A stretch of 63,526 nucleotides of DNA, the filler included, from Kipferlia bialata (Eukaryota): the NCBI GenBank assembly GCA_003568945.1. It is 3 parts of 3 records of this genome, joined end to end, with 100 filler letters (N's around TTAATTAATTAA, not from the genome) between each part and the next. Parts side by side here need not be neighbours in the genome. Positions count along the whole stretch, not along the records: positions 1 to 28,025 come from BDIP01000159.1; 2 more parts are not named here. One strand, written 5' to 3'. This document shows positions 1-56,153 of the stretch, piece by piece. The translations under genes and the position numbers were made by a program. Numbering within the stretch: the stretch's first letter is position 1; each line of letters starts with the position of its first letter. Below the pieces are notes generated by a model. It did no database searches and was not told the DNA's origin. It saw nothing but the letters and a program-made list of their open reading frames with translations.

Positions 1-52
<52 letters not shown>

Positions 53-576
53 ATACTGAGAGAGAGAGTTATGTGGCATGACGAATATGCTGACCCTTCA
101 CACAAATACCCTTATCAGTGCCTGTATGTTCCCTTGACAAAGGAATATACACATCAAATTTGAGGATACTGACACAACACATATACCCACCTCTGTCAGT
201 GCCTGTCTCTCTCGTAATGGCACCATCCCCAGACACCCCTCCCTGCAGCACGTCTTCTGAGGGTATGCACCACATGCACTAGGGGACATCTAGGTACAGT
301 GCACGCTGTACTCAAAGGGTGGTGCACCTACACAGACCACTAGTAGACTTAGTCTAATATGGAGTGACGGTAAATGAACCTAATGAACCTAAGCACTTGT
401 AGGGCCTATGGCACCTATACTTAGGGGCACCTGGTCTCTACTTCCTCCTTCGCCCAGAGAGAGGTACAGGGGTAGCGAATCATCACCAGTGGTACGGGTA
501 TATAATAAATGTACCAAACACACAAAAAACTCAAACCCTCATCACGACTGAAGATCTACTCTATTCAGCTCCCAGC

Positions 577-1695
577 CTACTTGGATCTCTTCTTGTGTGA
601 CTTACTCTTCTTCTTCTTCTTAGAGGGTTCCCTCCCCTCCATCTTCTCTCTCTCCCTCTGCGTGTACCCTGAGACCTCCCAGTCCTTCTCCCTGGCAGAG
701 GCATCCCTGGACCCGGCTAGAGCATCCCTAACTACCTGATGTTAGGGATATATATATATATATATATCACTATAGGATGTATCAGCAGAGAGAGCATCCC
801 TAACTACCTACTATAAGGGTGTCATATAACAACAGACATATATATATATATATATATGCATCAGTGGAGCCAGAGAGGGCATAGGATAGTATCTAAGTAT
901 AGAAATACATGTCAGTACATATATAGTGAGAGATAATCAAAGAAATAGGGCATCACGCACAACCTAGCTGTTAGGATAGTAGTAGTCTATACATATACAT
1001 ATATATAATGAGAGAGAATCTAGGGCATCACACACAACCTAGGGTCAATAGAGAGGCTGTCAGTAGAAATAGTATCAACAGCTATCAGTGTACAAGAAAC
1101 AGTACGTATCAATGCAACTACTATATTTAGGCATTACCTTAGGCGTCACTTTGGTCAAATAGCACTTACAAGCACAGCATATATATATATATATATATAT
1201 ACATTTAATAAGTGTTTACCTTTGGCGTCACCCTGAGGCATATCTCGATGTCAAAGTATATACATAGTATCCACCAGCATAGTATACTTATGAACATATA
1301 TATTACATGTAGATATATATATATATTAATATTATGGTGTATACCTTGGGTTGCACCCTGAGGCATATCTCGATGTCAAAGTTGTCGAGGTACAGAGAGG
1401 GGGAACGGCCCGGCTTGACAAACCACTTCCTGAGGGTTAAGTATATATATATAATACATAAACGTATACCAGTATTGTATATAATACTTCCTGAGGGTAA
1501 GTTTTTAGATAACATATATATATATATACTTTGAAACTGACGAACATGCGCAGCAGTGCGAGTGCTCTCTTGAGAGTGAGCTATCTTCCGTCTCTCTCTC
1601 TCATTCTCCCACCATTTGTGTATATGCATAATAGTATCTGATTAATATGCGCTGCAGTGCCAGAGCCCTCTTTGAGTTGTCCTCCATCTCATCCA

Positions 1696-1729
<34 letters not shown>

Positions 1730-3572
1730 CATACAGTACCTAATGAATATGCGCTGTAAGGCCAGTGCTCTCTTTGAGTTGTCCTCCATCTCATCAATCA
1801 AGTCCTCCTGTACCAGCATGGCCTCCACAACTGTGTCTGGAGTGAGCATAGTATATATATAAGAGTACCATTCATATGAAAGTATAAATATATATATCAG
1901 GTCCTCCTGTACCAGCATGGCCTCGACCACAGTGTCTGGAGTCAGAATACTATATATATNNNNNNNNNNNNNNNNNNNNNNNNNNNNNNNNNNNNNNNNN
2001 NNNNNNNNNNNNNNNNNNNNNNNNNNNNNNNNNNNNNNNNNNNNNNNNNNNNNNNNNNNNNNNNNNNNNNNNNNNNNNNNNNNNNNNNNNNNNNNNNNNN
2101 NNNNNNNNNNTAATATATATATATTATACATAATTATATAATTGGTATTAATATGGAAGTGTATATACATGGACGTCCTGTATCAGCATGGCCTCGACCA
2201 CGGTGTCTGGAGTGAGCATTACATGAATACATAGGAGCTGGGAATGTACAAGTATATGACTGCTAGTATATATATACATGACACTGATACCTATACTCTC
2301 TTATGGAGTGCGGGTTGTCTCTATGTATACTATATACCATACACATACTATATACTATAAGCGTAACTATATATATATATATATACTATATGGGTAAAAC
2401 ACTGGTACCTATGGAGTGCGGGTAGTCCCTGGGCAGGCCCTCGAGGTGCCTGGTGTAGAAGACCCTGGGGTGAGGTGATTATATAGAGCAGTACAATATC
2501 AATGACTCTCCCTGCCTCATGAACCCCCCCCCCTCTCTCTCTCTATATATATATATATAGTGGAATTACTCACTCTGAGTTCATGATGTCCCTCTCTGCC
2601 TCGTGGACCAGTCTGTTAGGACATCCTAGCAGTGTCTGCACGCTCTTGGCAGGTATCAGCAGATGCCCCTCCTCCTCGTGACACAGGTTGTTCTGGATGA
2701 ACTCCTGCGTCTTGTCCCGACTCTTCTGCCTGTCCCGCTGCTTACCAGCAACACCCTCCCTTCTGTTACGCTCGTCGATGGCACGCAGCAGACGCCGCTT
2801 GCCCTTGAGGTCTAGAGTGGGGTGGTCTTCTAGTAGGGATAGTCTGGGGTCGAGGGGGGCACCGTCAGTCTCGACACGAGCCCTGGCCTTGACCTGGAGT
2901 GAGAAGACTAGAAAAGAACACAATTCTATAACATAAAGTGAATGATTTCTATAGACTAGATGAAAGTAATCAGACTGGGAATACACCTGAGCACTGGCCT
3001 TGACCTGGGTTAAATACAATCAGTGAATATATATATATATATATGCATTTACATAGCCTTAACTTGGACTGTATCTCCTCGATGGTGTCAGACTCTGAGT
3101 CAATATAGCATGAATGTATACTCTATATATATACAGTATCAATATAGTATATATACAATGATACCTTTGACTGTATCTCCTCGATGGTGTCAGACTCTGA
3201 GTCACTAGTCTCCTCTGTGTCTGACTGTACAGAGTATGTGTCACTGGTCTCATCCACAGACTCAGACCCAGAGGCAGAGTCCTGGGGTCAGAAGTCCAAA
3301 TATGCAAGAATAATGAATACTATCATGTAAGATGCATATATAGAGGGAGTCTCATCAGCAGACTCAGACCCAGAGGCAGACTCCTGAGAGTCAGAGGAGA
3401 CCATAGTATAATGGAACAATATATCCAAAGAGTCCTAAGTAAGTAGCCAGTAGACAGCAGTAATACATATATCTACACTTAGCATCAGATAGACCACTGT
3501 ATAATGTGTACCTCAGTCTCTGTCTCTGTCTCTGCATCTGTGTCACTATGTCATACAAAGAATACATAAATG

Positions 3573-3603
<31 letters not shown>

Positions 3604-4491
3604 CCTCTGTCTCTGTCTCTGTCTCTGCATCTGTGTCACTGTCCAGGTTGGCCTCCCCAGCTGTGTCACCGTGCTCCTTGTTGAACCTAGTTCATTAGAG
3701 ATACAATATACAAAGGAGTAGGAGGTCAGAGATACATTATACTAATAGTACATTAATTAATTAATTAATGAAATGAGTAATATATTTATATATAAATATA
3801 TTTCGAGCTGTGTCACCGTGCTCCTTGTTGAACCTAAGGGGTTAGAGAGGATGGAGTATCATATCAGTATTATCAATCAAAGATACACTCTGACTCAGAG
3901 ACATGTAACACCAGTCTGTATGTATCATCTACCTATACTCTGCCTCTGCAAAGGTGAGTGCTCTGTCAGTGAGCCATGCATACTCATGCCCATCACTCTT
4001 CTCAGCCTCACTGCCATCCTTGCCATCCTCAGTCTCTCCACCAATGTCATCATCGTGTCTGGACCTGGCTGACTCATACTCAGAGGAGCCCTCCTGAGTA
4101 TAAGATATGATATATATACATAAATATATATAAGTATCCCTATATACATGCATACATACTCGTAGTCAGAGGAGTCATCCTGGCTATGAGAATGAAAAGA
4201 GGGTACTATTAGAGATTAGTGAAATGTATATAGTGTATATATAGGTTTGTATAAATATATGTATATATCGTAGTCAGAGGAACCGTCCTGAATAATAGAA
4301 TGAAGTATTAGAAATACATAATTATATATCTATAGTAATGAGGTTAATGTATATATATATACTATCCCACCTCGAATGTGTCGTCGTCTGACTCTGTCCT
4401 AGACTCCTCTGGGTGGGACAGGGTTACCCTCTTCTTCTTGACAGGCACGGACTTGGCCTGAGATGAGTATACACTATATATGTATGTGTAT

Positions 4492-4528
<37 letters not shown>

Positions 4529-7500
4529 GAGAGTGACCCTCTTCTTCTTGACAGGCACGGGCTTGACCTAGGATTAGAAACCAAGTATATAGATACTATA
4601 GAGCAAATCGAGAAGGTCCTACCACAACAACAACAAAGAAGAAATATACCCTACCTTCGGCTTGAGCTTGGTCTTGGGTGCGTGACCGGCTGCATCTCTC
4701 TTCGCCCTCCTCTCTCTCTCCCTCCGCTCTAACTCCTCCTCCTCTCTCTGAGCAGCACTCTTGGCACCCAGCCTCGCCTTCGCAGCGGCGTCTCTCCTGG
4801 CCCTTCTCTCCCTCTCCCTCTCCTCCGCCTCTCTCTCCTCTCTCTTCGCCTCCTCCTCCTTGGCTCTCTTCTTAGCTTCCCTCTCAACCAGATCAGCAGC
4901 CTTGATTCTCTCTCTCTCCTCAGCGGCTAGAGCGGCTCTCCGGGCTCTCTTTGCCTCTACAGCCCTCTCTCTCTCCACCCTCTCAGCCTCCTCCTGCTGT
5001 CTTCGCATCTCCTCCTCGGCCTCCCTCTTACTCCTCCCCTCCTCTATCAGCCTCGCTCTCTCTGCGTTGTGCTTCTGGATCCTGGCAGCAGCCTCGGCCT
5101 TCAGCTGCCTCTTGGACCTCTCTCTCTCTCCACCAACACTAGCTCTCTCTCTCTCCCTCCTCTTCTTCACCTTCTTGATGGCCTCTCCCTCCAGCTGTTC
5201 AACCTCAGCCTCACTAAGACTGAAGATAGTACCCACTACCTCCCTGGGGTAGCTGTAGCTGCCTGTCTCCTGATCACAGCAGTGTCTGTGCGCCTCCTTA
5301 GCTAAGTGCTGCTTACCAGGAGAGGGACCCAGTTTAGACAGTGCTGTCAGTACATCAGCCCCTGCCGCCCTGGTTCCACTGGCACCCATAAGACGGGGAA
5401 CAGGGGGAGAGGTGGATGATGCACCACCTTCCACATCCTCAGTGGGTGGGGTGACGTGGCTGTTGAGGAAGGTGATCCAACTGCCAAGCTCGGGGTCTTG
5501 CAGAGCCTGAATATCAGCACACATGCAACACTACTCTAAATATATATATTATTATACACATTAATGTATATATATATATATATACCTTTTTGGCAGCGAC
5601 TACGTCCAAGGGCAGACAGTCCGACATGGCTCTCAGAGAGGGCTGCTTCTTGGTCTTGTCAGCCTTGGTGGGGTCGCCATAGTGCCTCAGGGAGGCGAAG
5701 AGCTTGGCAAACAAGGACATCTTGAGAGCGGCTATGGCCTCTGCGGAGAGACGTCTATCGTACAGCCTGACGAGTCTGTCCAGTAGGTGCAGGGACTGGG
5801 ACATCGTCTGCTTGGAGGAGGCGGAGGTGCACTTAGATATCATTCTGAGGTTAGGAATTGACAGAGATAATATGAAAGTGGGTAAGATATATAGTGTGTA
5901 CATCATCTGCTTGGGGGATGGGGAGGTGCACTTGGATATCATCCTGGGGGTAAAGGAGAGAGTATAAGAGAGATTAAAGTAATGGAGAGATTGGGGTAAA
6001 CGAGAGATTAACACATAGATTGTGTAGGAGGAAGAGGTGTACTTGGATATCACCCTGAGAGGTAAGAAGGAACATCGAAGATTGGTAAGACAAGGAGAGT
6101 GTGTGTATATAGTATATATCATAAGTCCCCGCCTCTGTCTAGCTGGTATGTCCCCAGGCAGAAATAGTCTTAGTGTATAATATATATATATATATACTTC
6201 GTATATATGTAGTCCTCACCTCTGTCTAGCACTTGATACAGCAGGCATGTCCCCAGGCAGTGATAGTGATAGAGTATCACATACATACATGCAAATATAT
6301 GTATACACATATATATAGTACATATGTAGCGTCTACCTTTGTCTAGCACTAGATACAGCAGGCATGTCCCCAGGCAGAGGTGCCTCTCTGCTAGGCACCA
6401 CCGCCGCTGTCACACCCACACCCTGCACAAAGGGTCTCTCTCTCTCTCTCTCTGGCTGGACAAAGGGGGGCAGGGCAGGTGGTACGGGAACTGGGGGTGC
6501 GTTGGTACCTGTACCACTGATGGTGCCATAGGTACTGGATGTACTAGAGATGTCAGTACTGGTTGTTGTGGTGTCAGTGGCCTCTGGTACGGGGGGCAGC
6601 TTCTCAGCAGTAGAGGTAGAGACAGCGGGAGACACAGCCTTCTGAGTCTTATGGGTCTCAGTAGGTCTTGCAGCAATGGGTACAGAGGGAGGACGGGGGC
6701 GGAGAGGCCTAGAGCTGCTAGGAGCGGTAATAGCTACAGCGGGTGCCTCCACCACTGGTCTTGGCTGCAGAACACGTCTAGTCTTTGGTACAGGCTTAGG
6801 TACATCAGTGATGTCACCACTGACCATGCTCTCGAGTAGTGAGGTGGGTATGGGGGCATCACTGGATGTGGTCACAACAGCCTCTTCCACAGCCATATCC
6901 ACATCACCCTCTGCCTCTGCCTCTGAGTTGACATCAACAACAGGGTCCACTGCACCCACAGACTCTACAGTGGCACCCTGTATCTCTCTCTCTACCTCTC
7001 TCTCTCCCTCTGGTTCAGCAGGTGAGGGCGACTTCTGAGGCCTCTTACTCTCTGGCCCTGCTACATCGGCCTCTCCCTTCCTAGCCCTCTTGGCACCAGG
7101 CTGCTGATCTCCCATAGTATCTCTCTCCCTCTCTCTGACACTTGAAGTCTCATCCACTGCCTCTCTCTCTCTCTCCTTCTCTCTCTCTCCCTTGGCCTCT
7201 GCCACAGCCCTATCCCTCACCTCCATCACCAGTGCGGCAGTGCACCCCATCTCCTTAGCCACAGATATGACATCAGACTGCAGCTCACCACTGTCCTTGT
7301 GACAGTACCACTTCTTGATGAACCGGTGGCTCTCAGCCTCTATGAGACCCTTGGACAGCTCGGAATCAAGGGCAGAGACATACCGCCTATAGGAGGCCAG
7401 CTCCACTGCCATGTCTCCCTCCCCACCGGCATTGACGTCGAGGGTCTCCACGTCCAGCACCTGCTCCTCCTCGGGTATGGACACCTCCACCTCTATGCCG

Positions 7501-15976: not shown

Positions 15977-18900
15977 ATGCCTGATGAGATTATGGAGGGG
16001 GAGAGAGAGGTAGAGGGAGGGAGGGGGGTAGGTACACCTGTGAAGGGTAAGGGAGGGCCTGCAACAGAGGATGTGCCTGTGGAAGGTGTCAAGGCTGAGC
16101 AGGGGGGGGGAGAGGGAGAGAAGCCCAAGAAGAAGAGGAGGAGGAGGAAGGGGAAGAAGAAGAGGTCCAAGGGGAAGGGCGCCCCTGTGCCGCCATCCAT
16201 CCAGGAGGTGAGTGACCCTGTGTATATCTATGTGTGGCTGATAGTATCAGGTGGAGTAGGCAGTTCACAGACTCTGTGTCAGTGGATAGACTGTGTAGTA
16301 TCATAATATGTACCTATTCCCATTGCCCACCCCCTAGGTTGAGCAGGCTGCCCATAAGGAGGCCCTGTCGGCATACGGTAGCCCCATCAGGTAGGCTAGT
16401 ATGGCACTCACTCTCTCTTCTATAATCCGTTGCACTGCTGTGTCATTGTCAAGGTCATACCTCTGTATGTCTTCTCTTCCCATTCTTCTATTATTCTGGC
16501 CTGGTGTATGTAGAAGTATCGATAGTATGTAAGTGTATGTATCTATATTCCTATCCCCCCCCCCCCCCCCCCCCCCCCCCCACCCCCCCCCTTCCCCCCC
16601 CCCCTGGCCCCCCCCCCCCCCCCCCCCCCACACACACACACCACTTGTTCTCTGACAGACTACTCCGGGGCCTGTGACATACACTGCCATCCACTCCTCT
16701 GCCTTTACATCAGCCCCCTAGGGCATGTATCCCATATATATATAGACTCACATCACTATGTGCATTCACGGCCTTCCTGACCCTAGAGTCAGTGTCGCTA
16801 CTCCAAGACCAACACTGAGCTTGTGTATGAGATGCAACCAGACGGGGGCTGGGTGGCTACCCAGTGGGGGTTCGAAGCACACAAGGGAGGTATGGTGTAT
16901 ACTATAGGTGTTTATACGTACCATATGGTTAGTGAGGCATTATGCACTACGGTCACGGTGAGGGTGGTACCGACACGAGAGAGGTAGTGTCGACAATACA
17001 CATCACAGCGGCTGCCTGGCAAACAGTGTATTACTATACTCAAACTAAAGCTGCGTGTATGATGTTCACTTGGATATTGCTCCTTCCACCTCACCCCAGC
17101 CAGCACTGCCGCCCTTGGCCCAGAGGAGGGTGTGATGCATGTCAAGAACTTCAGACTGCTGCTAGACCCAGGTGTGTATACTATATGTATACTATATGTA
17201 TACTCTGTATGGTAGAGTATCAGAATCACTGGGTTCAGATACTCTCTCTGTATTTGTAGCTACCATGCCTCCACCGTGATAACGTGTAAAAACACCTACC
17301 CCAGACTCCCCGAGTGCAGGTGGTACGGACAGAGCCAGGATTCAGCTGCCCCCAGGTACAGTGCCTCTAGACTATAGTAGTTGTCTATCTTCCTCCCTCG
17401 ACCCCCCCCCACACATATATGTGTGTGCACCCCCGTATACACCCCCCCTCCCCCTTCTCCCCTTTAGGCAAGACTGTGGTCAATGTCCTGGCAGACTACT
17501 TGAGGTTCATGACTCAGCACTCGATGAAGGTATAGAGAGGTTTATGGGTGCTAGGTAGTATTGTGCTGTTTGTTTGAAGAGTATATACACCCTACCTATA
17601 TACATATATATATACACCCTGCCTAGATGGAAGTGGTGCTGCTTCTCGTGAGTATACATATATACATATCTATACACCATATGTATATACGTACCACCCT
17701 GATGCATCATACATATATATATACCACACTGATACTGACACCCCAGGTTCTCCACAGGGCCTACACTGTCTCCTCCTTCTCTGTATCGGATGTGATGTGG
17801 TGCATAGCCGTGCCTGCCAGGGTGAGGCTCAGCTGGTGTTCAATATGCCGTGTATATTGATGGGTTGGCAGTATCAGGCTGTGTGTCCCGTCACCATCAG
17901 TCTCTCTCCCCTACCGTATGTTTCAGTTCACCCCCCTGTGCTACATTACTCCCAGTCTCCTGCTGATACTGACACTGACCCCCAGTGGCTGTATCTATAT
18001 GTATACATACACTGACACTGACCCCCAGTGGCGTGGCAGGGCATGGACTCAGATGAGAGAGGCAGCCACAGAGGCAGGTGAGGCATATATGCATATGAGA
18101 TGGGAACGCAAGGGCACTCATTAATACACTGACACCAACCTCACTACTTATCCCTTGTTGGATCCGACACTTCCCCGAGTCCCGCAGCAGTATCAGTATA
18201 TATAGGTGATACTACTGACCCCAGGTCTCGTCTCGTCCCCTAACAGCCCCCGCCTGCACCTAGTAGCCGAGGCAGAAGCTGCTTTGGTATATATGGACAG
18301 CCTTGGGGTGCGCCAGTATCATTCACATATGTATATATATATGGGAGTGAGTGTGTATTGTCTATACGTATATCTATTACACTGTGTACTCACCTCAGAA
18401 CCCAGAGTTTCTGTCCAACGCGATGCAGAGGCTAGCTGAGGTGAATCTATGTGCAAGTCTTATAGTAAGCTATCGCAGGAGTATGCCCTAGTTCATAATG
18501 GCATTGTCTACAGCATCCTACGCTAGTATCCACACTCACATTACCGTCACACCCTTATGTACCAGACCCCCTTCCGCACCAGAGAGGGAGAGGTGACCAT
18601 GGTGGTGGATGCAGGTATCAGTATGGGTAGTACACATATATATAGTAGATATATAGTAGCTGTAGTACACACTCACATTGTGACCATGGTGGTGGATGCA
18701 GGTATCAGTATGGGTAGTATACAAATACATATATATAGTAGATCTATAGTAGATATAGTGGACACTCATAATGTGACCATGGTGGTGGATGCAGGTATGA
18801 GTCTCAGTATAGATAGTCTATATAGTTGATACATAGCAGATACTGAGACTGAGGCTGAGGCTGCGACTGCCTGTGACCATGGTGGTGGATCCAGGCGCAT

Positions 18901-20824
18901 TAATATGCCGCATATACACGTCTTGTACTGCATTTCATACCACTGCAGTGTGTGGGGTATGAGGGATATGACTGTTGTATATGACGGTGGAAGTCGGAGT
19001 ATTCGAGTTCAGTAACGAGATGCATACACTCATGATTATGAACTCATATGTGTACTGATATATCCTCTCTAACCCCCAGGTGCCACTTCTGTTGACATCA
19101 CCACATACCGGAAGGCAGGGCCAGGGACAGACGCACTCATGCACAGAGACAGGGTGGCCACGCTGGTACGAGTTGAGCTATTCTGCGTCCCCCTACCTAG
19201 CGAGTATGAGGTGTTATGCTCTATCGATATATTCCACTCTATTCTATGACCAATGCCAGGTCAGCAGTGCGTACGACGTCACCAGCGACATGACCCTTTC
19301 TGAGTGTGTAGACTTGGCATTCAGGGTATCAGCACCTGTATATATACACTGATATTTAACACCTATATATATTCACTGATATTTACATACAGACACTGAG
19401 TGTGTAGACATGGCATTCAGGGTATGTGTTCTCTCTCTAATATGTGTGTCTGGGTGAATGCATGTGCTTATCGATGGGTGTCACCATGTTGCATGTCTCA
19501 ACTGCGCATCCTACGATACATATTGAGCATGGTATGGTGTGTATCGGGTGTATGTGTAGTCTCCTGTTCTTTTCGGGGTATTAGATGTGTCTTAGTAAGA
19601 CGTCATACAATGGCCATCTTTGTATATCTGTTTGGTATCATCATTATACCTCTTCCGTCTGTACCCACGCTAGGACTGGGTGGTTGGCAAGGTGTCCCTG
19701 AGAGTGGTAGAGGAGATGGAAAGAGACAGACCAGGGTGAGTTATCTGTATACCCACTGGTGCACATCGTATATAGGTATATACGTATGAGATATCCAAAT
19801 ACGTATCAGTGCTCTCCGGTTGCAAATGGTCATGCCGGGTCTCAGGTCCCAGTAGGAATAATGTCTATGCATACGTGTGTCCCTATTCCCCAGGGCCCCA
19901 ACAACCTGTATCAGTGTCTTTTGTTGTTTCAAATATATTCATCCATATTACTATTCTATACAGGCTATTGTATTCATCTGTACTCCCTTTCTATACCCTT
20001 CATGACTCTCTCACCCCCCAGGGCCATGTACCACCTGTATGACCAGTGGAGGATGGAACGCCGCTTCGATGTGTGGAACGATAAGGTACAATAGAATTGT
20101 GTAGGGCCCTTTCCACGTACCAGTGACTGGTACGGTACCAGTCCCTCTAGATTAACCCAGATGCACTCATACACTGTATTGTATTCTATATATATATACA
20201 CATACAGAACTGTCCGTCATCCGTTGCTTACCTTCCATAACCACCCAGGATTACGACGATCACTACATCAGATTGTCCGGTTCGATGCTAAAGTGCATCG
20301 AGTCCCACCTGGCAGAGGAGGATGTGTTCGCTAGACTGGGGGTGGGTGGTTCTGTATACATCACACATGGGACCAATACACTTCATGGGCAGTCACATGG
20401 GTACTTATATATCATGACTGCCTCTGTCACCGGTGACATTGACATTCACATTCACATTGAAAATTGTTCTACCCTGGCCCTTCATACAGACACTGCCCCC
20501 GAGCCCTATAGTCTATAGGCTATAGACACTATCCATAACCGCTAATCAATATTCTGTACTATTCAGTATACACTGCCTGTAACATCTGTTGGCTGAGCAG
20601 GACAGTATTGGTATCAGTCTCAGACTTCAATTTCATAGGACTGATGACTGACGCTGCCTCTGACCCCTCTAGCCTATATACAATGTATACTATATATACA
20701 ATGTATACTATACACTGTCACTTACCCCTCTAGCCTATATACTATATATACTATATATACAATGTGTACTATACACTGTCCCTGACCCCTCTAGCCTATA
20801 TACTATGTATTATGTATTACATAT

Positions 20825-20855
<31 letters not shown>

Positions 20856-21893
20856 ACATATATATAACATATATACCATACACTGCCTCTGACCCCTCTA
20901 GGCCGAGCAGGACGGGGAAGAGGATGACCTGGTCCTGTGCCTCAAGGACAGAGAGAGAATGTTCGACCCTACAGTGGAGAGGATACTAGGCAGGGCTGAA
21001 GAGAGTATTCATACACAATCCAATGCAAATCCAGTACTATCCTTGGACGGATGTATCCAGGTGTCTGACCCTAGCTCTGATCAGAAAGGAGATGCATAAC
21101 CAGAGCCATCGACACAGGTACACATATCTATGTGTATATGGGGTTACATATATCTATGTGTATATAGGGTTACATATATCTTTGTGTATATAGGGTTACA
21201 TATATCTATGTGTATATAGGGTTATGGGTGCCTTGCACAGAGAGAGAGATATCAATGCTTGCGTCCTTGGGCTACACTATATATATATACCTTTACACTA
21301 AACACTGCTAGAGTAGTCAGTACTATTGAAAATATCCTGTCGAATCTTCATTGATCGATGATCCAGACACACACTCAGTGCTGGCTACACTAACATTACT
21401 AACAACAGTGTTGGGTCCATTCTCCTAATCGGAGGATTCGCCCAATTCCCGTACCTGAAACATAGGTAGTGTGTGCATATATATTCACAGTATTCCATAT
21501 ATATACTATATATAATATCACACATTCAATCTGTACCAAGGCTGGTGTCATACTGTTTTAGTACCAATGTAGTCTAACTACCCCCCTCGCCTCCTCTGAC
21601 TGTTAGGGTGCAGGCTGAGCTGGGACAGGATGTCAGGGTGGTGTGGCCAAAGAGCCCAGGTATCAGCATCAGTATCTATATATGTATAGTGTATTCATAT
21701 ATCATATGTATAGTATATATATGTGTAGAGTTACGGAACCCTCTCGATGTGTGGTACAACCCCCATCTCACTACTGTATCTTTACTTATATATTAATCTA
21801 CATACATACTAAAACCTACACTCACTCCCAGCCACGGTTGTCATGGGGGGTGCGTGTCAGTATGCCCTGACAAGGGAGGGGCCCTGGGTATAG
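15977..21893 (+). CDS. HSPA12-like atypical Hsp70 / actin-like ATPase domain protein with a basic N-terminal extension
   Basis: Spliced motifs: YSKTNTELVY...WGFEA; KTVVNVLADYLRFM; WCIAVPA.W....MREAA..AGL; LVAEAEAA; MVVDAGATSVDITTY; RMFDPTVERIL; ILLIGGFAQFPYL...VVWPKSPATVVMGGACQYAL. This matches the HSPA12-type nucleotide-binding domain layout. Confidence 0.8.
18593..18895 (+). repeat. Four copies of exon 3' end plus donor (gtgaccatggtggtggatgcag|gt) in an Hsp70 intron
   Basis: Copies at ~18593 (live), ~18680, ~18773 and ~18873 (degenerate, donor gc). Confidence 0.9.
21118..21225 (+). repeat. Intronic tandem repeat, ~26-nt unit x4 (tacatatatctatgtgtatatagggt)
   Basis: Directly visible head-to-tail copies. 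Confidence 0.9.
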
Positions 21894-28025: not shown

Positions 28026-28125
28026 NNNNNNNNNNNNNNNNNNNNNNNNNNNNNNNNNNNNNNNNNNNNTTAATTAATTAANNNNNNNNNNNNNNNNNNN
28101 NNNNNNNNNNNNNNNNNNNNNNNNN
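28026..28125. other. Artificial contig linker N..TTAATTAATTAA..N
   Basis: Six-frame stop spacer (28070-28081) between N runs. Confidence 0.95.
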
Positions 28126-29588: not shown

Positions 29589-29826
29589 GGTGATATGAAG
29601 GGTGCCTTCTTCCACCTGAGGGGTGCAGTCAGGGTCACCCAGGCCATGGTCAGAGAGACAATACAGCTAATCAAGAGGAGGTATACATATACATAAACTA
29701 TAATACATGTACTACACTATACTATATACACTATACATATAATATAGTGAATTTGGTTATATATAGTCAGGGTCACACAGGCCATGGTCAGAGAGACCAT
29801 CCAGCTCATCAAGAGGAGGTATGCCA

Positions 29827-29863
<37 letters not shown>

Positions 29864-32745
29864 ATACTCACCCTAGATGTCCAGGCGTTGAGTGCCATGT
29901 GGCCCCCTATGATCTCTCTCTCTCTTATTCTGTATCTGCCTCTCAATCGTAGGTGTCCAGGTGTTGAGTGCCTTGTTGCCCCCCATGATCTCTCTCTCTC
30001 TCTCTCTCTCTCTTTTGTCATCCTTGACCCTCTTAATCGAAGGTGTCCCGGTGTTGAGTGCCTTGTTGCCCCCTATGATCCTCTCTCTCTCTATATATAT
30101 CTCTCCCTCTCTTAGATATTCTCACTCCAGGTGCCCAGGTGTTGAGTGCCTAGTTGCCCCCTATGAGGCCGATGCCCAGCTGTGCTACCTGGCACAGACA
30201 GGCCAGGTGGACTTTGTGTTGACAGAGGTACATGCATTCCTACACATCATATCTATTTGTACTCACGGAGGTATGTATATGAGCCTGTTGCTGATTCAGT
30301 AAAGATACTTGACCCGTTTCTCCCTCTCTCTACCCCTTCTACCTATCAGGACAGTGACCTCCTTGTCTTTGGCTGTGAGAAGGTCATGTTCAAGTTCAAC
30401 AAGGCAAACGGTACGAATCCATCACGCTTACAGAGTCAATCTGTTTTTTGTCGTATCCAAAGTAGCCATGTCTCACCGTTAGGAACAGGTGACTTTCTGA
30501 TCCGGGACCTTGCTTCCCAACAGGCAGGGTGCTTCTCCGGCATGTCACCGGACCAGTTCAGGTGTGACTATGCCACCAACTCCATATCGGATAATAGTAT
30601 ATATCTATAATGTATATTGTGGCTCCGCCTACTATAGTACTGATGGCAGGGACACGTGCATCCTGAGTGGGTGTGACTATGCCACCAACTGTATATATAT
30701 ACTGTATGTACCTACATTGTATGTCATATATATGCTCAATGCTACACCCCAGAGACACGTGCATCCTCAGTGGGTGTGACTATGCCACCAACATACAGGG
30801 CATATTATATATTGACATAGTATATATATATATATATTTGTTAGGTAATGCTTCAGTACTACTAACCTCTAGAGACACCTGCATCCTGAGTGGGTGTGAC
30901 TATGCCACCAACATACAGGGCATAGGCCTCAAGACAGCAGCCAAGATGGTCAGGGAGAGCAAGGACGCGCTGAGGTACGGTGTGGTTCTACACGATACAT
31001 ATCAGTATTGTATTCATATATGCATATTGTTATTGTTCCTCTCACCCCAGGGTCATTCAGCAGCTGAGGGGCACTGCAAAGTTCGGGAGTAAGGTACGTA
31101 CAGGTGTATATATATAGCGACGCTCACTCTCTCCAATGAGTAGTATGTAGAGATTCCGTTCAGGTTTTCTTTTCCCCCCCGAGAGACTCTCTTGGCTATT
31201 ACTATCTAGTAACTAAGAGTATTTACTCACCCTTCAGATACCCGAGGGCTATGCATCACTGGTGGAGAGGGCACAGCTGTCATTCAGGTACATGCCATAT
31301 ATGATATATATATATTTACATATTTATAAATGCTGTTCTGTTCCGACATACTGCCCATTAGTCCGTACTGTGTATGAGTACACCTTGTGAATACCACATA
31401 TTATATAGTGTGGAGTACTCTGTCTCTTATTCTATACCTATCCCACCCTCAGGCACCAGACTGTGTATGACAGTGACAGCAGGGGCCCCTATTATAATTG
31501 TATATGATGCTACAGTATATAGTATTCTGCCGTGTGCAAATATGCTAATCCTTAGGCACCAGACTGTGTATGACAGTGACAGCAGAGGCCAGGTGCCCAT
31601 GAATGAGATCAAACCGGACACAGGAGGTATCCGCTCCATATATTGTATCACGTTATAACAACACAGGAGGTATCATGTATAGGCTATTTCTGCACGTGCT
31701 TATATCCATTAGCTGTTCTCATTCCAGCCCGTATCCAAGCCCTGGTCTCCGAGGTCGGGTGCTACTTCCTGGGGCCTGTCTATGACAATGAGGATGCAGA
31801 GAAGGTTAGTTTCATGTGTGTTATATCTAATTTGATATATATATGGTATACCTGTGGCAGTTTAGTCTATGGTAACGAGGATGCAGAGAAGGTGAGGCCA
31901 CACTATATACTGTAATATATGGTTGAGTAAGTGCTTGTTCTGTTCCCTTACCCCAGGTGGCCTGTGGTGAGTATGACGCCACCACCCACCAGCCTGTGGA
32001 TGATAGTGTACGCACAGTGGCAAAGGTACATATGTGAGATCTCTTACTGTGTTATTCTTCTGTGTATCACCTGTCCTCACCGCTCCATCTGATACCAGTC
32101 CAAGCCCCGTCCCACTGCTGCAGATATATATATACATATATATAGTATATATAGATATGACTGTATTACTAGGCCTAGTATATATCATATTGATTCCAGG
32201 CCAAGCCCAGACCCACTGCTGCAGAGAGGGCAGCCAGAAAGAAGAAGGAGGTATGGCTATGTGTTCATAACACTTATAGATAATGAGTGGTGCGTGCACG
32301 AGGTAGTGTACCATCCTCTCTGCAATACTGTCTCATACCAGGTCATGGAGGCCAAGGAGGAGAGAGATTCAAAGACGTGTGTTTCCCTGTGTATATAAGT
32401 ATTCGTGTGCCTTATTCTTAGTAGTCTCATACCAGGCCCTATATATATATATATATATATATATATTACAATAGATAATACCAGGCCAAGGAGGCCAAGG
32501 AGGAGAGAGAGAGAGATGCCCAGCAGAAGAGACAGAGGCTGCAGCTGGGGGGCGGGGTTGGACTGATGCACACTCTCACCAAGGTGTGTACATCTCCTAT
32601 CTCTTTGATCATCTCTCTCTCTCTCTCTGATACCCACACTCATATGTGTATATATGCATTTACTTCTTATGCCCACACTCACTCAGACTGAGGCCACGGC
32701 TAGACAGAGGGCCAGAGAGGTGGAGCAGGAGGTAGGGACATTCTA

Positions 32746-36232: not shown

Positions 36233-36330
36233 GTACGTAAGGATCCCCCCCCCCCCCCCCCCCCCCCCCCCTCTCTTTTTTTTTTGTTCCCCCCCCCCCC
36301 CCCCCCCCCCCTCCTCTCACTGACTCTCAG

Positions 36331-39300
36331 GTCTCGTACCAATCTGCGTATCTACGTGCTGGCCATGATGGGTCTCTACTACCGGAAGAAGAAGAAGAGA
36401 TCAGTGGCACTCTCAGAGTTCCAGCAGGCATGCGAGCTCCTGAGACACACCAAGGTACGGGTGTATGTACACATTTCTAGATGACTGAGTGCTTCCATAT
36501 ATGTCTGAATGATACACAATCCTCCCCCCCCCCCAACCTTTCTCTCATTATGCTTCTACTGTTGTTTCTATCCCTATCACTCACTCCAGGAGTTTGAGGG
36601 TGCTGGTCCAGTGTACCTGGCCACTGGGTACCTGTACTCACTGGGAGGGGGACTGGATGCCCCGCAGAAGGTATATACACTAGTGTTAGATGGGCAGAGT
36701 TAGTCACCACCTTGACTCTTCCTAGTTGACCCCAGGCCTTCCGCATGTCCCTCCGCGGACTTCAGTGGTATATACTCTCTGTCTGTAAGATGCTATGTAT
36801 ATTGTATATAGCCTCCTTTAACTCCAGGCCTTCCGCATGTCCCTCCGCGGACTGCAGTGGGCCCTTGCCCAGATACACCTGCCTGTCTCTGACCCAGACT
36901 CTGTGTCAGAGCTGGTCAAGGAGAGCGCAATCATAGGTACACACCTCCCCCCCCCCCTCCCCCGCCCCCTTCTCTCTGTGTGTCTTGCTTGTACTCTAGA
37001 CTCATTCACTCCCAGGTCACTACAATGTTGCCATTTCACTCAAGAAGGGCTCAGGATCGAAGCTCGGCGTCAAGGCAGGCAGAGACAAGGAGGTGGGTGT
37101 CTTCTTATCAATATCTGTGTGGGTCTCACCCCCAGCATAATCCATAATCACGTTCTGTTCTATCTCTGCTCTCCCTCACTCCCCCCCCATCTCTCTCTGC
37201 CTTACCCCCAGCAGGATGACCCCTACTACCACATCAGCCGTGCCCTCTCTCTCCTTCTCTCCATGTATATACAGATATCCTTGTATATGTGAATATATAT
37301 ATATCTGTCTCACCTTCAGCAGGATGACCCCTACTACCACATCAGCCGGGCCCTGTCTCTTGTGGATCTGCTACAGCTGGGTGACCACGGCATAGCAACT
37401 AGGGTGCAGAGGGCATTCAGATCATTCGATGCTAGGTACGTTTATGCCGGTGTACTTCTAGTATATATAGGAAAGTATATAGTATACATTTGTTGTAGAG
37501 TCTGAATATGTATACATTCATATGTGTTAGTGTCTCACTCCAGGGAGCGTGCCAAGGACATGCGTGCCAGGGGTGAGTCTGGAAGGCCACACCCTGCATC
37601 AGCTGGGCCAGCAACTAGGTATAGTATAGTGAATAGTATATGTTCCCATCTGTCTATACACTCCATATACCTTCTTACCCCTAGGGCCCCCAGCTTGCCC
37701 ACTGCAATATTGTTAGTTTTGTGTGTTCATTATTACCCTCTCCCTATATGACCCCTCACCCCCAGGGCCACCAGCGTCCCCCACCTCCCCAGGCTATCCG
37801 GCACCACCAAGAGGGGTCAGGATGGGACAGCACGGGGCACTATCCCCAGACCCCCCACCGATGCCCCGCCCCATGCCGCCACAGCCTACAAGCCAAGCAG
37901 TGCGCCCAGTGGGTCATCCTTCACATCCTCCTACCACCTCGCTGCCACTACTAGACCTCCCCAGGGGCATATCCAGATGGATGACACCACTGGGTTCAGG
38001 AGCGTGCCCAGTGGCAACATGACAATCAGGTACAGTGCCATATACTAAAAATATATATAATTATTGTAGTTTAGTATATAATGGTGCTATAATATGCTAA
38101 CTCCAGGCCCCCCGATGAGAATGAGCTCCCTGCATCTAGGTTCGAGAGGGACTCCTACGACGATGGGGTGGACATCCCATCCCCTAGCTCGTTCATCCCA
38201 AGGCCGCCTAGTAAGGTAAGATCATATATATACTATCCGAATGGTATAGAACAGTGGGTTATGTGCGTGTTGTTGCTGTTACTGATGCCCAGGGTGCCGG
38301 TGTCGGCTCAAGGGGAGGCTTTGACTTCACTGCTCCGAGACCACCCATGCCTGGCCCACCTAGGGTATGTATATACTTTACTCTCCACCTCTCTGTCTCT
38401 CTCTATATATATGTATGTGTATGTATGTTTATATATATGTATTTACTGACTCCTAGGGCAGACGCGAGAGACCTAGGGAGAGGCCTGGCAGCAGGGGTCG
38501 CAGACTGGTGGCCAGTGGGGGAGAGGATGAGTCGTACCTCCATGTGCACCCCCCATCCTCCCACAGCCAGAGGAGACAGACACCGCAGACAGGGGCCATC
38601 GCAACTGCTAGACAGGTATGTGCACTCTCTCAATACTGTATACATATTTGTATATATATGTGTATATATATGGAGAGAGAGAGAGAGACAGACGCCGCAG
38701 ACAGGGGCCATCGCAACTGCTAGACAGGTATGTGTCAAGCATACATCATACTGTTAGACTCTATAGTGTTGACTCTTCACTTCTTACATCCAGAGACAGA
38801 TGCGTGCCCTGGCCCCTGCCCCCCCTACCTCGGCACCCATTGGGGCTACAAAGTCTCGCAGACTCCGTGGAACCAAGGGTACACAGCATCACATATCATC
38901 TAGTATATATGTGTGCATGGATTCAGTGACAATGTGTTGCTAACCCCCAGCCACCAAGGGCGAGAGGTCCGTTGGCATCACGTCCTTGGGCACCGAGTCT
39001 CTGCAGCTGAGGCACTTTGCTGGGTCGGGGAAGAGCAGGGACGACGGCGTGGCACCCCCTCCCTCTGACACAGAGAGGAAGACTGCCCTCAGACTCATCC
39101 TGGCAGCCAAGCAGGTATATCCACTCGTCGCGTTGTTTTTGCGCTCTCTCTCTCTCTGTGTGTGTATGTGTGTGTGTATCTCTGGACCTTTCTCTCCCTC
39201 TCACTCCCTAGGCCGTAACTGAGGAGAGGGCTGCCACCAAGATTGAGGGTGCAGTGAGGGGCTTCCTGGTCAGAAGGAGGATCAGGAATGAAGCCATCAG

Positions 39301-56053: not shown

Positions 56054-56153
56054 NNNNNNNNNNNNNNNNNNNNNNNNNNNNNNNNNNNNNNNNNNNNTTA
56101 ATTAATTAANNNNNNNNNNNNNNNNNNNNNNNNNNNNNNNNNNNNNNNNNNNN
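56054..56153. other. Artificial contig linker N..TTAATTAATTAA..N
   Basis: Spacer at 56098-56109 between N runs. Confidence 0.95.

Follow-up and report, generated by a model that had tools for sequence, protein, structure and literature searches.

The closest known kind of structure to the one described here is the mirage of amphioxus, reported in the main texts of PMC3087553 and PMC3902484 for the globin genes BflGb6 and BflGb9, Adh3, troponin C and PGBD5. Intron gain through tandem genomic duplication at a proto-splice site has also been described, as outlined in PMC3443670 and PMC2891723, and the account given in PMC13031629 has aborted homologous recombination followed by end-joining produce tandem duplications. 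Duplicated splice boundaries have been known as single-gene oddities, and in the stretch of Kipferlia bialata DNA analysed here (63,526 nt, referred to as the window) they are frequent enough to measure. We found no description of such repeats in Kipferlia in the open text of PMC5874029 (where the string 'duplicat' is absent) or PMC6679479 or in wider searches, and found neither the silent-site bias of such copies nor their scale in print, subscription papers and supplements lying outside these searches. All counts below apply to this window, which represents a single genotype of a free-living protist, and not to the genome as a whole. Exon-end copies are genuinely present throughout much of it and amount to more than a series of passive fossils; they are mirage-like with an allele-like signature.

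A self-trained finder followed by manual curation gave us models of 13 genes or parts of genes, free of internal stops and containing 178 introns; exon-end copies mislead gene finders. KIPB_001178 and KIPB_001431 are backed by database proteins, the remaining models being our own predictions, for which the names Exo1, TFIIS, DPP IV, IQ-repeat and Aha1 are presumptive. The window joins three contigs, with N-run spacers at 28026-28125 and 56054-56153, and long poly-C/G runs stand at many contig ends and gaps, the presumed Aha1-like gene stopping at one near 36240. The focal intron belongs to KIPB_001178 (577-9746, minus strand; 17 exons, 1613 aa), and the translation of this model is exactly the database protein (P0001). 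A Pfam search with KIPB_001178 gave no significant family, an orthologue search with its C-terminal region returned P0001 only, the single addition from a representative library was P0003, a protein of Kipferlia whose repeats bear a remote similarity, and no relatives emerged from two metagenome scans; searches with KIPB_001431 found neither paralogue nor orthologue. Several copies of a short FI..W..D..TG.L-like motif occur in KIPB_001178 (P0001 residues ~528, 1016, 1440 and 1531), the focal exon end at 1740 forming part of one of them, and the motif recurs about 12 times in P0003 (annotated as poly(A) polymerase; no Pfam match).

The live focal exon (1740-1836, minus strand, as are all features of this gene) ends in KRALALQRIFI, is matched by a transcript-like contig (X2 record 9) and belongs to the gene model identical to P0001; it is followed at 1739-1698 by its donor and a 42-nt spacer with TA/GA runs. 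Beyond this lie two copies of the exon end, copy 2 (1638-1697; a DNA contig covers it to 1685) and copy 3 (1537-1594; within a DNA contig), which diverge from the live end by 14% and 24%, respectively. The preliminary description had located all three blocks correctly. The live donor GT is at 1739, copy 2 ends at 1638 before AT, and copy 3 ends at 1537 before TT. Its counts for copy 2 are confirmed over the range that it considered (six synonymous nucleotide changes in five codons, including TTA/CTG, and one F>L), and in full, from 1697, the copy has 19 codons with six synonymous and two replacement changes, the added one being I>M. Copy 3 reads KRALALLRMFV as had been stated, but it carries a 5-nt insertion and is therefore in frame only over its last 11 codons; up to 1594 it has seven synonymous and five replacement changes in 17 codons. 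The same intron contains a short copy of the next acceptor with 5 nt of the next exon (1486-1500, found by eye and under the detector threshold), and the next live exon (1345-1429, 85 nt, in P0001) fits the transcript-like contig exactly in length. The 5' end of the focal exon is likewise copied, once nearby (1896-1935; four synonymous and no replacement changes) and once further away (2176-2206; three and one), with the acceptor intact in each. For the 3' end of exon 1429-1345 the detector found a copy with GT intact (1220-1257), and a further worn one is visible by eye (1160-1138). Finally, nucleotide and protein-level scans place three copies of the start of the last exon within 791-1038, where 807-791 is identical, 963-946 keeps six residues with 5 of 18 nt changed, and 1038-1021 keeps five of six residues.

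Across the window we count 57 copies in 39 of the 178 modelled introns (about one in five), at both exon ends and in units of about 100 bp. A copy stands in the adjacent intron for 46 of 356 exon ends, against 0.1-0.7 expected from the ends of other exons, and among long exons the ends are copied in 10 of 52 cases and inner parts in 0 of 52. Most copies (52/57) extend to the exon end together with the flank there, which makes them tandem repeats across the exon-intron boundary. In the 45 units measured, a median exon copy of ~32 nt is joined to a median spacer of ~68 nt, shorter than the median copy-free intron (91 nt). Introns under 80 nt hold no copies (0/59), as opposed to 35 of the 56 that measure at least 150 nt. 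A self-comparison of the window reveals many direct repeats some 60-150 bp apart, and the protein-level scan adds five further copies where 0.15 are expected, one having six identical residues with 5 of 18 bases changed. Among individual cases, the presumed Exo1-like gene has a single 3' copy besides two arrays, each made up of three 5' copies (29765-30872, plus strand), and the longest diverged copy, of 66 nt, lies in KIPB_001431 (57529-57594, plus strand; 7 synonymous and 5 replacement changes, GT intact). Copy density varies by gene, from 12 of 16 introns in KIPB_001178 (570-9750) and 8 of 21 in the Exo1-like gene to 6 of 49 in the presumed IQ-repeat gene and 1 of 30 in the DPP IV-like gene, the introns of these last two genes (39000-52340) being ~77 nt. 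In three arrays (18593-18895, 20651-20901 and 45127-45341) the whole unit including its spacer is 73-83% alike, nearer to classic mirages, and the array at 20651-20901 repeats the acceptor almost without exon sequence. Whole-exon duplication was ruled out, because the copies are 15-66 nt long beside exons of 259-1277 nt. Spacers of mobile-element origin were also considered, and the self-comparison of the window yielded no spacer family beyond microsatellites.

Splice sites are mostly intact in the copies, with AG kept in 27/27 and GT in 18/25, and dead sites score much like live ones, at 6.7 against 6.9 for acceptors and 4.4 against 5.6 for donors, where random intronic sites fall below zero. 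Such values would be expected if the copies were used as alternative exon ends and selected as protein sequence, rare isoforms being dropped by contigs. We consider this reading highly improbable, as a copy has only a single splice site, the donors of the focal copies are dead, some copies are frameshifted, the changes are not conservative, and the transcript-like contig equals the copy-free model of 11 exons. This 3,133-nt X2 contig matches seven exons, and its unaligned gaps equal four other modelled exons to the base, so that no copy is included in that transcript, which fits the copy-free model from 5844 to 577; the check covers one contig of the focal gene, and contigs drop rare isoforms. 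X2 is RNA by software guess, no run being on record as RNA, yet its contig skips introns. In the focal transcript the exon-adjacent site is used every time, and for this one gene it thus appears that the exon-side site is chosen despite equally strong decoys, contrary to the intron definition expected in short-intron protists from the discussion in PMC2397502. Loss of GT from copy donors exceeds expectation (5/23 vs 1.8, p=0.03), which suggests that some decoys may be selected against.

The differences between copies and live exons are strongly concentrated at silent sites. Summed over all 57 copies, differences fall at 58 of 259 four-fold sites and at 44 of 1090 zero-fold sites, giving a d0/d4 of 0.156 (bootstrap CI 0.10-0.24). 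The focal gene taken alone has 0.17, and the other genes 0.14. The ratio is 0.15-0.18 across detector thresholds of 22-40 with nothing dropped, 0.18 when the two of 59 detector matches that we set aside (a low-complexity-end cross-match and a poorly aligned one) are retained, and 0.22 for the 18 copies beside RNA-checked exons; for the six copies sharing one DNA contig with the live exon it is 0.38 (10/116 vs 6/29), a sample too small to tell from 0.5. If the copies were single-chromosome tandem duplications simply decaying, with distance equal to age, a ratio of 0.5 would be predicted, and simulated passive fossils, set beside a live exon that changed at silent sites and passed through the same detector, gave 0.49-0.50 with a minimum of 0.25 in 240 runs. 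A six-fold silent-site bias cannot arise from passive decay, and we reject this explanation for the pooled set (0.16 vs 0.5), although individual copies may be fossils of this kind. Conversion between live and dead copies was rejected as the cause of the bias on the argument that it cannot push d0/d4 below 0.5.

Changes private to one member of a series carry the same signal. In 12 adjacent pairs from nine arrays (56 four-fold and 212 zero-fold sites), private four-fold changes number 7/56 in live ends, 6/56 in near copies and 5/56 in far copies, and private zero-fold changes 0/212, 4/212 and 13/212. Passive decay predicts equal private rates at both kinds of site in dead copies, but near copies have 6/56 at four-fold and 4/212 at zero-fold sites (Fisher p=0.007), an excess which indicates that the near copy had its own history under coding constraint. 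The codons of dead copies are as common in genes as those of live ends (0.327 and 0.314; silent change at random would give 0.267), the silent differences include the exchange of entire codons, for example AGG/CGT and AGT/TCC, and the four-fold differences of the 57 copies comprise 13 transitions and 45 transversions, vs 20:24 at zero-fold sites (p=0.02). A several-fold faster mutation of silent sites in exons than of introns, with the live exon departing from a slow fossil, would lower d0/d4 without any allele; it could not, however, produce private silent changes in the near dead copy, and it predicts well-kept intron flanks where the flanks are the most diverged part, making it a very doubtful account. 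Flank identity is 47% after donors (baseline 32%) and 60% before acceptors (baseline 42%), and of 43 units examined 11 have spacers that can be aligned with one another, in comparison with controls of 99% at 8% divergence and 53% at 27%. By these controls the flanks and spacers fit a divergence of about 30%, where passive fossils predict ~8%. Introns and silent sites that are far apart, with amino-acid sites close, form the pattern of alleles. The live and dead copies behave in this way like alleles, and, their differences being mostly silent, a live exon end and its copy are likely to derive from two versions of the chromosome joined in DNA repair. No second allele or paralogue was seen in the contigs over 51-6200, in protein searches or in two metagenome scans; since the donor allele was not seen, we infer the homologue.

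The preliminary description had interpreted the copies as an age-graded series of fossil exon ends whose divergence rises with distance, the intron perhaps recording earlier or homologous states of the protein. That they are dead exon ends is borne out. Their total divergence, however, is uncorrelated with distance when all 57 are considered (Spearman 0.04, p=0.79), the second of the outcomes that the preliminary description had named as refuting it. In silent divergence the copies resemble one another (p=0.11). What survives of the age grading lies in the private zero-fold changes, which number 4 in near vs 13 in far copies (p=0.049) and whose outward rise suggests a series ordered by time since death, whereas total divergence is not graded in this manner. 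Likewise, 'homologous states' fits the silent sites, but 'earlier states' of the protein finds no support. No zero-fold change against the live exon is shared by two fossils (0/212 sites), and the 51 amino-acid changes show no excess of conservative replacements over chance (P=0.29), which makes it more likely that residues M/V/L of copy 3 reflect decay rather than earlier protein states; 4 of 5 indels in the copies shift the frame. These three features (the outward increase, random amino-acid changes and frame-shifting indels) are those that passive single-chromosome decay would leave, and yet the ratios and spacer divergence above render that explanation, taken by itself, barely credible. 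To judge from the sequences, the silent differences between live and dead copies predate the death of the copy.

We slightly favour the view that the copies are scars left when DNA was repaired from a homologous but diverged chromosome, now absent from the genome as seen. A break in an exon would be followed by invasion of the homologue by one end, the exons matching and the introns being ~30% different. Synthesis would then proceed through what remains of the exon and across the splice site, stopping ~70 nt into the intron, short of a full intron length. There the new strand would be let go, in many cases at a TA/GA run, and would undergo end-joining with the opposite side of the break, with no annealing. 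In this manner the homologue's exon end would become the live one and the old end would be shifted ~100 bp into the intron, repeated events producing a series with the longest-dead copy outermost. Live and dead copies would thus begin as two functional alleles, of which the dead one then decays randomly. Such scars may persist because splicing takes the site nearest the exon, as seen in one contig of the focal gene. Of 45 junctions, 20 adjoin a dinucleotide run, over a 26% background (p=0.005). According to the treatment in PMC8516963, metamonads are without NHEJ, fornicates have Dmc1 instead of Rad51A and retain meiotic genes, sex in metamonads is not observed, and alternative end-joining genes are full in C. 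membranifera and partial in others. A point against the repair model comes from the C. elegans tnsl-1 mutants described in PMC13031629, in which both duplicate copies are of single-parent origin and not from the homologue.

The main competing explanation is that a same-chromatid duplication first made identical copies, as for a mirage, and that in an outcrossing population the live or the dead copy was later replaced by the version of a diverged allele, through gene conversion or unequal exchange. This route, which we regard as rather unlikely but a serious contender, yields the same silent bias and diverged flanks, has a parallel in the unequal crossing-over proposed in the mirage papers on amphioxus, and suits those arrays with a common junction and similar spacers (18593-18895; 29832-30166). 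It does require recombination within copies of 30-60 bp, and no young, fully identical unit is found among 43 (the best whole units are 82-83% alike), an absence that leans against it and is not decisive. Moreover, no repeat with a 60-160-bp unit occurs in 6,681 nt of intergenic DNA, a weak test given that this DNA is short and constrained. Both this route and repair from the homologue need diverged homologues that the genome no longer shows, and in one genome divergence at birth is inseparable from later allele exchange. An origin from the homologue in the broader sense, whether at birth or via later exchange, is in our view quite probable.

Two haplotypes joined in tandem across microsatellites by the assembler would also give silent-biased copies and TA/GA-rich junctions. 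Contig alignment passed over the repeats that separate the live exon from copy 2, so this one joint has no independent bridge, and the contig-bridged subset has the weakest ratio (0.38). Nevertheless, a contig of run X1 spans 1214-1685, taking in copy 3, the greater part of copy 2 and the next exon together with its own copy, with zero differences at a depth of 455, comparable with neighbouring contigs (376-455), which places copies 2 and 3 in one contig, and six live-plus-copy pairs each lie within a single contig of this separate assembly with no differences at depths of 376-455; X1 is possibly the sample behind the window, and the comparison thus tests the assembly and not the biology. Contigs compared with 51-6200 contain no alternative letters in any exon, the Kipferlia genome paper displays one eukaryote coverage peak in its reported analysis (PMC5874029), and the copies are partial, some with dead donors or frameshifts. 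An assembly artefact is accordingly a very unlikely source of the pattern. Runs X3 and X4, from another sample with the same species label, gave no match over 51-6200, which is not proof of absence.

Should the copies be scars of alleles, a single genome would hold evidence of chromosome exchange in a group in which sex is unobserved, together with an estimate of past diversity, and evidence of mating or hybridisation drawn from them would be indirect. Tentatively, and with a little less than even confidence, we propose that about one-fifth of Kipferlia introns store former alleles of the neighbouring exon end, that chromosomes differing at 20-30% of their silent sites have met in repair again and again, which would mean cryptic sex or hybridisation in a metamonad that lacks NHEJ, and that the same process both lengthens and creates introns. 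If all 124,912 annotated introns behave alike, tens of thousands of Kipferlia introns would be involved. Most long introns in the window are explained by the copies, which also seem to give rise to introns, a point relevant to whether the intron richness of Kipferlia is ancestral. Two introns fit the gain by duplication at a proto-splice site described in PMC3443670 and PMC2891723, a copy of the adjacent exon supplying a splice site, and these are the clear cases of in-register matches between intron end and adjacent exon among 178 (16/18 and 15/18 nt). The candidate at 7991-7845 (minus strand) begins with 24 nt copied from the start of the next exon, donor included (16/18 nt; 0.04 expected at 12 or more), and the intron at 58532-58396 (minus strand) terminates in the last 15 nt of the previous exon. 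Unlike such gains, most Kipferlia copies duplicate an existing boundary and merely lengthen the intron. Other introns in which duplicated exon sequence may have supplied the splice site are a GC-AG intron at 7751-7614 (minus strand), whose start resembles the next exon at 10/18, within chance; one at 32584-32686 (plus strand), whose end matches the previous exon end at 14/18; and one whose donor at 30562 (plus strand) sits in a copy of the interior of the next exon.

Among described repair systems, the one in C. elegans involving brc-1, helq-1, tnsl-1 and polymerase theta is set out in PMC13031629 as invasion, synthesis and end-joining leading to a head-to-tail duplication, the same sequence that we propose here. 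The worm duplications arise in repair mutants, whereas the Kipferlia units are ~100 bp, involve exon ends only, and contain copies that look allelic. As for the amphioxus mirages, the word 'synonymous' is absent from the main texts of both papers (PMC3087553, PMC3902484). As these texts present them, mirages resemble the Kipferlia copies in being tandem copies of exon-intron boundaries, at 5' or 3' ends and often with AG or GT intact, in leaving the main mRNA unaffected (in Kipferlia, for one contig of the focal gene), and in having been proposed as a source of new introns. Unit number that varies among haplotypes or cells is a further mark of mirages, and the material compared here is one genotype in the form of contigs. 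They differ in that mirages are minisatellites of single genes with 81-100% identity over the whole unit and concerted evolution, whereas in Kipferlia 39 of 178 introns are affected, most spacers are unalignable (11/43 align), and the exon parts look like alleles.
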